From IMG/VR virus record IMGVR_UViG_3300028920_000060, positions 7,968-71,967 of that record: DNA of 64,000 nt; one strand, given 5' to 3'. This DNA comes from a virus. Of the stretch, positions 12,912-28,990 are shown in pieces; the stretch's first letter is position 1, and the number at the start of each line of letters is the position of its first letter. The notes below the pieces were generated by a model. The model did not search any database. It saw only the letters and a program-made list of their open reading frames with translations, and had not been told where the DNA came from. The translations under genes and the position numbers were made by a program.

Positions 12912-13382
12912 TTAGCGCCTATCTGGCTCACTCTCATAAACATTAACAGTCCCAGCAGCACCTTCCCAACTACCAGCACCATGTTGTGAGCTCAATTCAG
13001 CATCAATCACCTTTTCTACTGCTAAACGTATTTTTATTTCTGCAGGATTAGGTAGTCGTGCGTTTGTTCCTGGTGTTTGTAAAGCAGTAACAAAAACAGT
13101 TTCAATTGTAGCTAAATTAGTTAAACTGGTATCCCAACCGCCGGCCAATTCATATATGCCAGGAGCACCAGCAGAGTTAACTTCGGTGAGTAATCGTCTA
13201 TTATTAGTTGGTGTAATAGTGATATATGATTTAAAAGTATTATCACTCCAATCTAAAAAGAAATTATCGCTCTCCCTATAAATGCGGATATAAATATCAG
13301 TCAATCCAGCTAAAGGTAATCCCTTACTGTCTCGTACATCAACTGCAATAGGCTCAACATCGCCAAGTACGATCTCAGTCAT
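12912..13382 (-). CDS. Virion-associated Ig-like/beta-sandwich protein
   Basis: 156 aa; GLPLAGLTDIYIRIYR...LTEVNSAGAPGIYEL pattern. Confidence 0.4.
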   Translation of the reverse strand: MTEIVLGDVEPIAVDVRDSKGLPLAGLTDIYIRIYRESDNFFLDWSDNTFKSYITITPTNNRRLLTEVNSAGAPGIYELAGGWDTSLTNLATIETVFVTALQTPGTNARLPNPAEIKIRLAVEKVIDAELSSQHGAGSWEGAAGTVNVYESEPDRR

Positions 13383-13920
13383 GTTTACCTCTAATTAAGC
13401 AAATCACTGAACGACCATTAGGTATAAGAGTTGACTCACCAAAACTATCTAATTCTTTGGGTGTCCATACTGACTTATGTGTCTCATGAACATTGCCAAA
13501 AGCAGCTCCTTGTGCTGATGGTTTATGTGGTGTTGCTACAATAACTGCATTGCTTCTATGTAATAGACTAGATAATAATTCATTACCTTTATCTTTATCA
13601 AAATGCTCAATTACATCTATTAATAAAGACAGGTCATACTTTCTAGCTAATGTAGGTACTATATCTAAAGCATCACCATAAAAAATGTTGTTATAAACCC
13701 AATCGTGTAATGGTGTTCTATATTCATCGTGAATTTCTATACCATCTATTCTACATTTAAAATCTGAATATACATTTCTACCATCCCATAATTCTAAATA
13801 TTCACGTACTAATACACCAAATTTACCAAAACCTATTCCAACATCAAGTATAGATTTGGGCCTTACTGACATAATCAGACCCATAATCTCGTTTAATTGC
13901 ATCCAATGACTAGTAGGCAT
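13375..13920 (-). CDS. Class I SAM-dependent methyltransferase
   Basis: Motif I ILDVGIGFG, IDGIE, GDA, YDLSLLIDVIEH. Confidence 0.85.
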   Translation of the reverse strand: MPTSHWMQLNEIMGLIMSVRPKSILDVGIGFGKFGVLVREYLELWDGRNVYSDFKCRIDGIEIHDEYRTPLHDWVYNNIFYGDALDIVPTLARKYDLSLLIDVIEHFDKDKGNELLSSLLHRSNAVIVATPHKPSAQGAAFGNVHETHKSVWTPKELDSFGESTLIPNGRSVICLIRGKHD

Positions 13921-26800: not shown

Positions 26801-28990
26801 AGTAACGCCAGTCTGACCGACACCAGTTGGTCCAGTTATTCCCGTAGGACCTGTGTTTCCCGTTTGACCAATACCAGTTGGTCCAGTAGCACCAGTTGGT
26901 CCAGTAGCACCAGTTGGTCCAGTAACACCCGTAACACCAGTTTGACCAGTAGGACCAGTAACACCCGTTGAACCAGTTTGACCGGTTGGACCAGTAAGAC
27001 CAATGCCAGTAGGTCCAGTAGTACCAGTTGCGCCTGTAAGTCCTGTTGGACCAGTTGGTCCAGTAGGTCCTGTTTGACCAGTTACGCCAGTAGGTCCTGT
27101 TTGACCAGTTTGACCAGTTTGGCCAATACCAGTTGAGCCAGTAGAACCCACAGGGCCAGTTGGACCAGTAAGACCGGTTGGACCTATTTGACCAGTAGCG
27201 CCAGTTGGTCCTGTTAGACCAGTAGGGCCAGTAGGGCCAGTTTGACCAGTTACACCTGTGAAGCCAATAAGACCAGTTGGTCCTGTTTGACCAGTTTGAC
27301 CAGTTGCACCAGTTGGTCCTGTTTGACCAGTAGAACCGGTAGGACCTGTTTGACCTGTTGGGCCGGTAGCTCCCGTTTGTCCAGCACCAGTAGGACCAGT
27401 TACACCGGTAGAACCTGTGGGACCAGTTGGTCCAGTTGATCCTGTAATTCCTGTTTGACCGGTTGTACCTGTTTGACCTGTTGAACCAGTAGAACCGGTA
27501 GGACCTGTTGGTCCTGTTTGACCAGTAGAACCGGTAGGACCTGTTGGTCCTGTTTGTCCAGCACCAGTAGGACCGGTGGGTCCTGTCGAACCCGTTATTC
27601 CTGTAGGTCCAGTAGAACCAGTTAACCCAGTCTGACCAGCACCAGTTGGTCCAACAGGACCTGTTAAACCTGTAGCACCAGTTGGTCCAGTTGGTCCAGT
27701 TGCACCAGTTTGACCAGCACCAGTTGGTCCGGTAGTACCAGTTGGTCCGGTAGTACCAGTTGGTCCGGTTGGACCAGAAATACCTGTAGGACCATTACCA
27801 CCAACAGATCTTACATTAAGATTACCATATCGAAGTATAAAGTTTGCACTAGAAGACGTAGTGCTTTTAACATAAACTTCTACAGATTGCGCCGCTCCTA
27901 CCGTACCTATAAAAGAGATAGCTGCAGCACCAACTAAAGCAGAAGAACTTAACTGACGCTCAATTTGCCCATCTGTCTGTAATACACCATTAATATAAAC
28001 ACCAATTACATATGTATTTGATGCACTACCATCAAACGAAAATGTAAATGATATTTCATACGTACCTAAATTGTTTACTATAATTCTATCATTAGCTTGA
28101 TCTGGCGTCATTCCAAAGGAATTGCCGTTGGTATCAAATTGTGTGATCTTATAAAATTGATTTTGATTAGTTAATGTTTGACCTGTAGAATTACTAGCTA
28201 CAGATATCTCACCAAGATAAGCAGTACCAGCACCATCAGCACCACTAGGACCTGTGGGGCCTGTTGGACCGGTTACACCAGCACCAGTTGGTCCTGTAGG
28301 ACCTGTAGGACCTGTTGAACCTGTAGGACCAGTAGTACCAGTAGGACCAGTTTGACCAGCACCAGTTGGTCCAGTAGAACCTGTTGAACCTGTAGGACCA
28401 GTTTGACCAGTAGGTCCTGTTGGACCTGTAGTTCCTGCTCCTGTAGGACCAGTTGCTCCTGTTAGTCCTGTAAAACCTATAGGGCCAGTAGGGCCAGTAG
28501 GTCCGGTAGGTCCTGTAGTACCAGCGCCAGTAGGTCCTGTAACACCAGTAGAACCAGTAGGTCCTATTATTCCTGTAGAGCCTGTTGGGCCTATACTTCC
28601 TGTTGCACCCGTAGGACCAGTTGGTCCTATTTGACCAGTAGGGCCAGTTAAACCGGTTATGCCAGTAGGTCCGGTAGGACCAGTTACACCTGTAGCACCA
28701 ATAGAACCAGTAGCGCCAGTAAGTCCTGTAGGACCGGTTGCGCCAGTAGGACCAGTTACACCAGCACCGGTTGGTCCAGTCGCACCAGTCGCACCAGTAG
28801 GACCAGTTACACCAGTCGAACCAGTAGAACCAGTAGGACCAGTCACACCAGCTATTCCAGCAGGTCCAGTAGGTCCAGTAGCACCTGTTGGAGCAGCAGG
28901 ACCAGTTATTCCTGTCGGTCCAGCTGGACCGGTTACGCCAGTAGGGCCGGTTGCACCTTCAGCCCCTACTTGTCCACTAAGCAGGGCCAT
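20900..28990 (-). CDS. Giant collagen-like (Gly-X-Thr) fibre protein, BclA-like, 2696 aa
   Basis: Almost entirely [18 protein letters not shown] triplets, with one internal C1q/BclA-C-like domain (about 27795-28230) and a C-terminal globular region (about 20900-21455). Confidence 0.9.
21455..28960 (-). repeat. Degenerate 9-bp coding repeat (GGN NNN ACN) with local tandem expansions
   Basis: Examples: (GQT)x5 near 22905-22935, (GST)x6 near 21765-21815, and a 36-bp unit repeated three times near 23325-23420. Confidence 0.9.

Follow-up and report, generated by a model that had tools for sequence, protein, structure and literature searches.

We describe four enzyme genes and two collagen-like fibre genes in a 64,000-nucleotide (nt) stretch of viral DNA, hereafter the window, which comprises bases 7968–71967 of the 84,110-bp IMG/VR record IMGVR_UViG_3300028920_000060. 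The sequence evidence suggests that the collagen filaments of this phage are O-glycosylated by its own enzymes and that the attached glycan is tailored by methylation and sulfation, a reading to which we give a probability of about 0.68. We infer that Thr residues of the collagen repeats are the acceptor, that the GT2 part of a tri-domain glycosyltransferase primes and its GT4 part extends, and that the methyl and sulfate groups are placed on the sugar; the identity of the sugar and the order of the steps are drawn in the same way. The genes on which the argument turns are as follows:

13375..13920, minus strand: MTase-A, a 181-amino-acid (aa) Hen1-like methyltransferase, with no Pfam match and a match to the Hen1 family in the Protein Data Bank (PDB)
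13910..14530, minus strand: 206-aa minimal sulfotransferase of the type using 3′-phosphoadenosine 5′-phosphosulfate (PAPS), recognised from motifs, homologues and fold
14532..16664, minus strand: 710-aa glycosyltransferase (GT) with a GT4 (GT-B) domain, a GT2 (GT-A) domain and a C-terminal tetratricopeptide repeat (TPR) region, recognised from Pfam, PHROG and an AlphaFold2 (AF2) model
16675..17214, minus strand: MTase-B, a 179-aa class-I methyltransferase dependent on S-adenosylmethionine (SAM), matching Methyltransf_25 (E = 1.3e-5) and phrog_3382 (E = 4e-9)
19330..20898, minus strand: 522-aa fibre protein and second candidate acceptor, matching Collagen PF01391 (36 bits) and many PHROG tail-fibre families
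20900..28990, minus strand: 2,696-aa collagen-like filament protein and proposed main acceptor, with 765 G-X-Y triplets

The original prediction had pointed to four coupled or closely spaced modification genes, and all of them lie on the minus strand, overlapping or abutting.

The candidate acceptors

The 2,696-aa protein has its 765 triplets in 34 runs. Thr fills the Y position of 691 triplets (90%), X is usually P, Q, A, S or L, and the protein contains 788 Thr residues overall. Tyr, Lys and Arg are almost absent from these repeats. Collagen sequence occupies aa 6–255 and 397–2514, the two parts being separated by the sole non-collagen insert (141 aa, aa 256–396; window 27803–28225) and followed by a globular C-terminus (aa 2515–2696). 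If wholly triple-helical, the ~2,295 collagen residues would measure ~650 nm at 0.286 nm per residue. The insert weakly matches BclA_C (PF18573; E = 1.2e-4, 22.3 bits against a 38-bit cut-off), and the C-terminal domain of BclA is a C1q/TNF-like trimerisation domain. No family match was found for the C-terminal 182 aa. The 522-aa fibre has a single run of 21 triplets (aa 325–387), 20 of which are G-X-Thr, and the expectation of two Gly-X-Thr collagens offering hundreds of Thr residues was therefore borne out. As a side observation, a 1,669-aa protein of one relative (L054; loci and contigs are cited below by our own L and P labels) has collagen blocks that are likewise split by similar repeated globular inserts.

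The glycosyltransferase

The GT gene most plausibly begins at the ATG at 16664, which is preceded by a strong Shine–Dalgarno sequence (GGTGGGG); an alternative open reading frame (ORF) call starts at a GTG at 16700. Its nearest collagen gene is 2.6 kb away. The GT4 domain exceeds the Pfam cut-offs of both Glycos_transf_1 (PF00534, 33.9 against 26.4 bits) and PF13692 (30.6 against 27 bits). The GT2 domain is just under that of Glycos_transf_2 (PF00535, 21.4 against 23.3 bits), a family that is annotated on its homologues. Several TPR families match the C-terminal region, with TPR_2 (32.2 bits) and TPR_12 (30.2 bits) both over their cut-offs, and the protein matches phrog_13126, “beta-1,4-glycosyltransferase” (E = 2e-27). 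Ten full-length homologues share 49–67% identity with it, and across 11 homologues both the E-x7-E motif of the GT4 domain (ESFHLAVAEGMACGL) and the DDDE motif of the GT2 domain are invariant.

The AF2 model of the GT2-TPR half has a predicted local distance difference test score (pLDDT) of 86 and comprises a GT-A fold at residues 12–180 and TPR helices at residues 187–392, in the numbering of that half. Its best PDB matches, over the full length, are the SunS/ThuS peptide S-glycosyltransferases (7msn/7msk; E = 2e-14); further matches are the TPR domains of OGT and SPINDLY and the flagellin O-GlcNAc transferase GmaR (7x9r, rank 27).

The sulfotransferase

The start of the sulfotransferase is most likely at 14530, 1 nt past the GT stop, which revises the position of 14578 given in the original prediction. 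Against PF13469 (Sulfotransfer_3) the protein scores 22.2 bits, and the gathering cut-off of 27 is not reached; several homologues with 42–53% identity to it carry PF00685/PF13469 matches, and the missed score fits a truncated minimal domain of ~206 aa. Both the 5′-phosphosulfate-binding loop (5′-PSB, SHKRSGTH) and the 3′-phosphate-binding motif (3′-PB, YIVRxP....S) are invariant or nearly so in 14 family members, and His65 is invariant. The AF2 model (pLDDT 93.6) was compared with the PDB using Foldseek, and the top 45 matches are all PAP(S)-binding sulfotransferases (probability 0.8–1.0, template modelling score ~0.5). A profile search of 1.84 billion representative sequences recovered 117 clusters at E ≤ 1e-10; since most of these are ~200 aa long, we regard them as a distinct “mini-sulfotransferase” family.

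The two methyltransferases

MTase-B lies just under the Pfam cut-off of Methyltransf_25, and the PHROG family that it matches is labelled “methyltransferase”. Homologues occur within the cassettes of L007, L054 and L072.

MTase-A finds only the Hen1 family when its sequence and a five-member profile are compared with the PDB (3jwi, 3.7e-8; 3jwh, 4e-5; HENMT1, 8e-3). Two motifs are conserved in the alignment, IDVIEH (IEVIEH in Hen1) and HETHrSkW (HETHxSxW; HRDHRFEW in Hen1), suggesting that the enzyme is probably metal-dependent. It consists of the catalytic domain only (165–181 aa), and the N-terminal RNA/Pnkp-binding domain of Hen1 is absent. In NCBIfam it matches Hen1 and MftM, the mycofactocin oligosaccharide methyltransferase, equally weakly, and for Hen1 (TIGR04074) it scores 19.9 bits against a cut-off of 340 bits. 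Hen1 and MftM both methylate a sugar 2-hydroxyl. MTase-A homologues are present in the cassettes of L001, L002, L052, L054 and L072.

These matches raise the alternative that part of the cassette acts on nucleic acids, with MTase-A 2′-O-methylating RNA 3′ ends (so that tRNA or RNA of the phage is protected, for instance) and/or the GT glycosylating hypermodified DNA bases. The only PDB relatives of the MTase-A profile are RNA 2′-O-methyltransferases whose metal-site motifs it has kept, its homologues are widespread in phages without collagens, and GTs with which phages hypermodify their DNA are well known. We nevertheless consider this very improbable. The missing N-terminal domain, the very low Hen1 score and the equally weak MftM match all argue against an RNA target, as does the lack of any Pnkp-like gene among the scanned genes of the window or of its relatives’ cassettes. 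Elsewhere, the commonest neighbours of MTase-A are glycosyltransferases and sulfotransferases. DNA hypermodification was rejected as an explanation: no 5-hydroxymethylcytosine or 5-hydroxymethyluracil (5hmC/5hmU) pathway genes were seen in the window, and neither a TPR domain nor linkage to collagens would serve a role in modifying DNA.

Association of the enzymes with Gly-X-Thr collagens

The co-occurrence search put forward in the original prediction linked the enzymes to the collagens. All seven relatives of the GT or the sulfotransferase that have adequate flanking sequence adjoin G-X-Thr collagens (7/7); for IMG/VR loci whose only GT relatives are distant ones, the count is 0/42 (no run of at least eight G-X-Y triplets within 10 kb; Fisher p = 1e-8, among lineages that are related). 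In the loci anchored on the GT (L001, L002, L003/L004 and L006; GT 49–67% identical), G-X-Thr runs lie upstream, with Thr making up 0.8–1.0 of the Y positions. The L002 collagen has K, R or F at X and yet 94% Thr at Y.

The arrangement around this association varies. The GT is found ahead of the tail genes in the window and in L003 and ahead of the head genes in L002 and L006; in these last two and in the contigs of P0007 and P0009, a few short genes separate it from the genes for protease, decoration protein and capsid downstream, and in loci of the L002/L006 type the collagen is still upstream of the GT wherever sequence exists. In L001 (192 kb) and L002 (178 kb), the GT lies between upstream G-X-Thr collagens and a downstream MTase-A homologue. 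L003/L004, on a 75.7-kb contig syntenic to the window, has a GT with 64% identity. Its G-X-Thr collagen of 784 aa and a 1,228-aa fibre that includes stretches of G-X-Thr are accompanied by a GT4-GT2-TPR protein fused to an FkbM-type methyltransferase, by a 318-aa Sulfotransfer_3 protein and then by orthologues of the 156-, 430-, 116-, 368- and 842-aa proteins of the window. The 318-aa sulfotransferase occupies the same slot as the window enzyme, and BLAST finds no similarity between the two, a pattern that we read as non-orthologous replacement. A failed annotation of the L003 protein was considered and rejected, as it passes the Pfam thresholds.

When loci are gathered with the sulfotransferase profile instead, all five found in IMG/VR (three lineages) carry GT2-TPR, MTase-A and GT4, and some carry MTase-B; where flank is present, the G-X-Thr collagens and a further fibre-module protein with an N-terminal “ATKYTYS” domain (described below) are also there, L069 being truncated. 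L052 (195 kb) has four G-X-Thr proteins, the ATKYTYS protein, a 379-aa GT2-TPR, the sulfotransferase, MTase-A, a 298-aa GT4 and, later, a sheath. L054 (98 kb) has the 1,669-aa G-X-Thr collagen mentioned above, two ATKYTYS proteins, a GT2-GT2-TPR protein, the sulfotransferase, MTase-B, MTase-A and GT4. GT2-TPR and GT4 are thus separate genes in L052 and L054, P0032 is a TPR–sulfotransferase fusion, and L072 has a sulfotransferase–methyltransferase fusion. The same five activities recur in changing order, as separate genes or joined in four different fusions, and it is therefore reasonable to regard them as one pathway. Two genes adjoining these cassettes are recorded here as side observations: an oxidoreductase of the GFO/IDH/MocA family next to the GT of L006, on the opposite strand (3612–4523), and a weak cytidylyltransferase-like gene among the fibre genes of L052 (5524–6006).

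The fusions also bear on the alternative that the sulfotransferase and/or the methyltransferases modify protein directly, by side-chain O-sulfation or by N/O-methylation of the fibre, with the GT acting independently. Such a scheme would accommodate L119 (1265–9200), a high-GC locus with two G-X-Y fibres, an ATKYTYS-like protein, MTase-B and MTase-A and no detectable GT, and the structural matches of our sulfotransferase model include, at rank 42, the tyrosylprotein sulfotransferase TPST1. We give it very little credence: fused proteins physically link GT-TPR with the sulfotransferase and the methyltransferases, the mini-sulfotransferase never appears without GT2-TPR and GT4 in the recovered loci, and the window collagen repeats are nearly free of Tyr, Lys and Arg. 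Moreover, O-methylated sugars are known on BclA glycans.

The pairing of collagen and GT2-TPR extends beyond phages. A scan of the genomes of 185,579 species with the GT2-TPR profile gave 12 loci at 24–31% identity, including Acidovorax (three), Thermomicrobiales, Devosia, Mucilaginibacter, Casimicrobiaceae and several beta-proteobacterial metagenome-assembled genomes, and in 8 of the 12 a G-X-Thr-rich collagen run lies within ~2 kb. In Acidovorax sp. SUPP3334 (L056, 8978–11077), the gene for a 316-aa G-A/V/P-Thr collagen with a signal peptide lies 10 nt upstream of a 379-aa GT2-TPR gene, amid housekeeping chromosomal genes; by analogy, this looks like an SgtA–BclA3-like pair in a Gram-negative bacterium. 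Among arbitrary IMG/VR loci containing (GXT)10, 14 of 80 had a GT2-TPR profile match, mostly full-length, against 1 of 56 controls, and the fraction was 10 of 42 for loci of at least 8 kb. Neither the mini-sulfotransferase nor MTase-A was found in any of the 80 (0/80), from which we conclude that collagen with GT2-TPR is common and the sulfo/methyl elaboration rarer.

Evidence weighing against collagen glycosylation

Several observations pull away from the proposal that the enzymes glycosylate the collagens. Cassette-bearing phages have structural genes in common, and part of the co-occurrence is therefore inheritance. Sixty-six of the 80 sampled phage G-X-Thr collagen loci have no GT2-TPR nearby, and such fibres therefore do not require glycosylation. 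In L007 (GT 67% identical), MTase-B and the GT are present, and the 5.5 kb of sequence available upstream contain no collagen. L134 has a 724-aa GT2-TPR-GT4 protein, in reversed order relative to the window, directly after the major capsid gene in a locus without collagen (4728–6902), which makes it a possible capsid-directed relative; as L007 and L134 illustrate, relatives of the GT may glycosylate other virion proteins. The GT-less L119 belongs on this side as well, as do the Pfam scores of the window GT2, sulfotransferase and MTase-B, all under the curated cut-offs.

MTase-A also departs from the pattern. Of its homologues at 63 IMG/VR loci, only about a dozen belong to collagen cassettes; ~48 of the 63 are without collagen and without detectable GT2-TPR, and a GT or sulfotransferase was found near 11 of 56 non-cassette (“solo”) loci, a lower bound given that tblastn was used with few GT representatives. 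The original prediction had asked whether relatives carry the cassette independently of collagen genes, and the outcome favours the prediction: the GT and the sulfotransferase stay linked to collagens in every relative with adequate flank. MTase-A, by contrast, is mostly found outside collagen cassettes. MTase-A was accordingly rejected as a dedicated cassette component. Clustering of the neighbours of solo MTase-A, so far as these could be identified, shows that GT2, Caps_synth, GT4, GT-D, Sulfotransfer_3/4 and other methyltransferases are the commonest, and one solo locus (L106) is a DegT-type sugar-biosynthesis cluster; because these are glyco-genes, they favour a glycan role over an RNA role. 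Separately, in L078, L083 and L085 (~7600–13000), genes of the GT-A-like, GT-D, Sulfotransfer_3/4, MTase-A, Caps_synth and GT4 types cluster with no collagen in the vicinity, and sulfated or methylated glycans encoded by phages may therefore reach beyond collagens.

Some of these observations suit an alternative in which the cassette glycosylates a non-collagen virion protein (capsid, decoration protein, ATKYTYS protein, sheath or tube) and its linkage to collagen reflects shared location only. Besides the L134 fusion behind the capsid gene and the loci in which the GT lies just upstream of the protease, decoration and capsid genes, MW202524 has several GTs and two methyltransferases right behind its capsid gene and no collagen, and the ATKYTYS protein accompanies the cassette as consistently as the collagens do. 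Mycobacteriophages also provide a precedent, the C-termini of their capsid and tail-tube proteins being glycosylated according to the account in PMC12619734. We consider this alternative unlikely, since bacterial GT2-TPR genes adjoin collagens in non-phage contexts where there is no capsid, the pairing recurs in the 14 of 80 unrelated (GXT)10 phage loci, and Thr at Y is constant although X varies. In addition, SgtA, an enzyme with the same GT-A and TPR architecture, acts experimentally on collagen Thr.

Gene order and setting

Every gene of interest is encoded on the minus strand. In transcriptional order, the portal, a protease fusion, an Ig-like decoration protein and the major capsid protein are followed by small genes, the 417- and 620-aa proteins, the fibre block and the enzyme cassette. 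Next come four proteins without annotation, a sheath-sized protein of 842 aa, three paralogous tube proteins and a protein resembling a tape measure; baseplate-like genes are located outside the window. The original prediction placed the cassette between neck genes and a fibre block. The fibre block stands, and the neck label has position alone behind it, with no family match for the 156-, 430-, 116- and 368-aa proteins; these four and the 417-, 620-, 424- and 147-aa proteins have no match in PHROG, Pfam or NCBIfam. The remaining features of the region are:

6012-7584: three tandem tube-like virion paralogues (175, 184 and 158 aa; phrog_985), downstream of the 842-aa sheath-sized protein, minus strand
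17211..17615, minus strand: 134-aa DUF1353 protein resembling a “tail assembly chaperone” (DUF1353, 23 bits; phrog_1158, E = 4e-22)
17612..18055, minus strand: 147-aa protein in the fibre block, without a Pfam or PHROG family match
18052..19326, minus strand: 424-aa fibre-module protein with a ~75-aa N-terminal “ATKYTYS..DFPN” domain and no Pfam or PHROG match

The DUF1353 protein is likely to be a fibre assembly factor; in L001, its homologue is directly downstream of the collagen fibre genes and ~3 kb upstream of the GT. The N-terminal domain of the 424-aa protein is also present in the cassette loci L002 (8064-9053), L052 (7419-8861), L054 (two copies; 6796-8405), L072 (6703-8312) and L097. 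Its pattern, ATKYTYS..DFPN...GD.CDIWF...LDG.VAAH.G, is common to otherwise different proteins in every cassette locus. The domain could give different fibre-module proteins a shared means of attachment to the virion, and the 424-aa protein is possibly an attachment or adaptor protein.

The cassette junctions are translationally coupled. DUF1353 and MTase-B overlap in an ATGA, the GT ATG follows ~10 nt after the MTase-B stop, 1 nt separates the GT stop from the sulfotransferase ATG, the sulfotransferase and MTase-A overlap by 11 nt, and MTase-A overlaps the next virion gene by 8 nt. A scan of 11–30 kb for promoter- and terminator-like sites gave counts equal to those of shuffled controls and no obvious internal terminator. 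No hydrophobic segment was found in the cassette enzymes (maximum Kyte–Doolittle value of a 19-mer <1.2); given also that their genes lie inside the virion operon, we take them to be soluble cytoplasmic enzymes made together with the virion proteins.

These properties are relevant to a further alternative, in which the enzymes remodel glycans of the host envelope (lipopolysaccharide (LPS) O-antigen, capsule or S-layer glycoprotein), blocking superinfection or aiding release, and are merely sited in a hypervariable fibre region. GTs of the tail-fibre hypervariable region of marine pelagimyophages have been read as O-antigen modifiers (PMC7029224); GT4, GT2, methyltransferases and sulfotransferases are frequent in polysaccharide gene clusters, and solo MTase-A homologues occur in clusters resembling sugar or polysaccharide biosynthesis, such as L106. 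We consider envelope remodelling quite unlikely, as the soluble enzymes come with no membrane anchor, flippase, polymerase or Gtr-type component, they are coupled to late virion genes, and a TPR-bearing GT-A enzyme whose structural neighbours are peptide glycosyltransferases points to a protein acceptor. Nor would a tight, rearrangement-resistant linkage to G-X-Thr collagens be expected.

For glycosylation of the phage’s own collagens, the record poses one more difficulty: no genes for the synthesis of PAPS or nucleotide sugars (adenosine 5′-phosphosulfate (APS) kinase, nucleotidyl-transferase, epimerase) were found in its 84 kb, an absence that says little because the linear record is only an estimated ~51% complete. 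It is probably half of a large phage genome, cassette-bearing relatives spanning 178–195 kb. No recognisable replication genes were seen in the window. Among public sequencing runs, the cassette is held only by two DNA metagenomes, both from marine sediment. Its DNA had no match among 50,697 phage records, and a protein-level search of these records gave only five distant matches (22–25% identity); therefore, we conclude that no cultured relative exists. Elsewhere in the window, an 891-aa protein with an inorganic pyrophosphatase (InPase) domain lies between the terminase-side genes and the portal (43592–46267), and two very large ORFs (2,097 and 1,014 aa; 54086–63436) are almost without family matches.

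Relation to known systems

The closest parallel is SgtA–BclA3 of Clostridioides difficile. SgtA consists of a GT-A domain and four TPR repeats, is encoded beside bclA3 and transfers beta-O-GlcNAc from UDP-N-acetylglucosamine (UDP-GlcNAc), with Mn2+, onto Thr of collagen-repeat peptides in vitro (PMC7157674), in agreement with the precedent invoked by the original prediction of a GT2-TPR beside a collagen whose Thr residues are glycosylated. Compared by architecture and published domain description, the phage system likewise has a soluble GT-A domain followed by a C-terminal TPR region, encoded next to a Gly-X-Thr collagen gene; the acceptor is collagen-repeat Thr, shown for SgtA (PMC7157674) and predicted for the phage. 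The split GT2-TPR of relatives (379 aa in L052) is close to SgtA in size (358 aa), and the insert of the giant phage collagen resembles BclA_C weakly, below the family cut-off. Unlike SgtA–BclA3, the phage genes lie in a virion operon, GT2-TPR is fused to GT4, and a sulfotransferase and two methyltransferases stand alongside. The phage acceptor is also ~10 times longer than BclA.

As in SunS/ThuS and GmaR, which act on a polypeptide, a GT-A domain is combined with a helical-repeat domain, which in those enzymes binds the substrate. However, identity to these enzymes is only 13–16%, they have neither the GT4 fusion nor tailoring enzymes, and their targets are not collagen repeats, SunS/ThuS modifying Cys of a small bacteriocin and GmaR Ser/Thr of flagellin. 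MTase-A has the catalytic-domain signature of bacterial Hen1 and human HENMT1, which methylate a ribose hydroxyl with a metal ion; it differs in its lack of the RNA-binding N-terminal domain and Pnkp partner, in lying far under the family cut-off and in keeping the company of glyco-genes.

Two viral precedents are relevant. Phage-encoded glycosyltransferases of mycobacteriophages decorate the phages’ own structural proteins in the host cytoplasm, as cited in PMC12619734 and PMC12801897, and the original prediction was right to draw on them. The mycobacteriophage enzymes modify capsid and tail-tube subunits at their C-termini, unlike the collagen targets proposed here, and the accounts in these citing papers report no TPR-GT, sulfotransferase or Hen1-like methyltransferase. 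Mimivirus L230 hydroxylates Lys and glucosylates the hydroxylysine of viral collagen (PMC9614988). There too, a virus encodes collagen-like proteins and an enzyme that glycosylates them, as is predicted for the phage; the chemistry of L230 is of the animal type, in a eukaryotic virus, in contrast to the bacterial-type Thr O-glycosylation predicted here. A review of giant-virus glycans makes no mention of sulfotransferases or sulfated glycans, and sulfation of a virus-encoded glycan is not described in the searchable literature. Our full-text searches found no paper on glycosylation of phage collagen fibres and none using “phage/viral sulfotransferase” phrases, nor did they turn up a description of the full combination. 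To our knowledge, mycobacteriophages are the only phages for which experiments have shown that phage-encoded enzymes glycosylate the virion.

Proposed mechanism and significance

We hypothesize that the four enzyme genes form a late-expressed, cytoplasmic module for protein O-glycosylation and glycan tailoring, whose substrate would be the phage’s own Gly-X-Thr fibres. In the manner of SgtA, the TPR region would dock the GT2 (GT-A) domain on the repetitive chain, and the first sugar would be transferred onto Thr at Y; the fused GT4 (GT-B) domain would then attach a further sugar. The Hen1/MftM-like MTase-A and the class-I MTase-B would O-methylate sugar hydroxyls using SAM, and the minimal sulfotransferase would add sulfate from host PAPS. 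The product would be a trimeric filament of ~0.65 μm with up to ~700 modified Thr per chain and an anionic, partly methylated glycan coat. Speculatively, such a coat could stabilise the helix without hydroxyproline, shield it from proteases, promote adhesion or provide charge.

A more ambitious version of this proposal, which we hold tentatively and at somewhat less than even odds, treats the system as virus-encoded protein sulfo-glycosylation, in which ~700 Thr per chain would bear a short O-methylated, sulfated O-glycan, giving a phage a mucin- or proteoglycan-like anionic “glycocalyx”. Part of the methylation would be due to the Hen1-type enzyme, repurposed from ribose to hydroxyls of the glycan, and the sulfation to the minimal sulfotransferase of ~200 aa. 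GT2-TPR, GT4, the mini-sulfotransferase and the Hen1-like MTase would constitute a mobile, shuffled cassette shared by several large sediment and aquatic phage lineages, itself an elaboration of the wider pairing of collagen and GT2-TPR, seen beside roughly a fifth of the phage G-X-Thr collagens sampled and also in various bacteria.

Comparative genomics supports the core reading, in which an SgtA–BclA3-type protein O-glycosylation would have moved onto phage virion fibres and been extended by sulfation and methylation. If this is true, phage fibres can bear dense, negatively charged, methylated glycans, with effects on adsorption to host or particle surfaces in sediments, on protease resistance, on the stability of the triple helix without hydroxyproline and on the antigenicity of therapeutic phages. 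The cassette would also offer compact enzymes with which recombinant collagens could be glyco-engineered: a sulfotransferase of ~206 aa, a Hen1-like O-methyltransferase of ~170 aa and a Thr-glycosyltransferase that is guided by its TPR region and whose acceptor is a simple repeat. Finally, the SgtA–BclA3 paradigm of Firmicutes spores would come to include phages as well as Gram-negative bacteria, Acidovorax among them.

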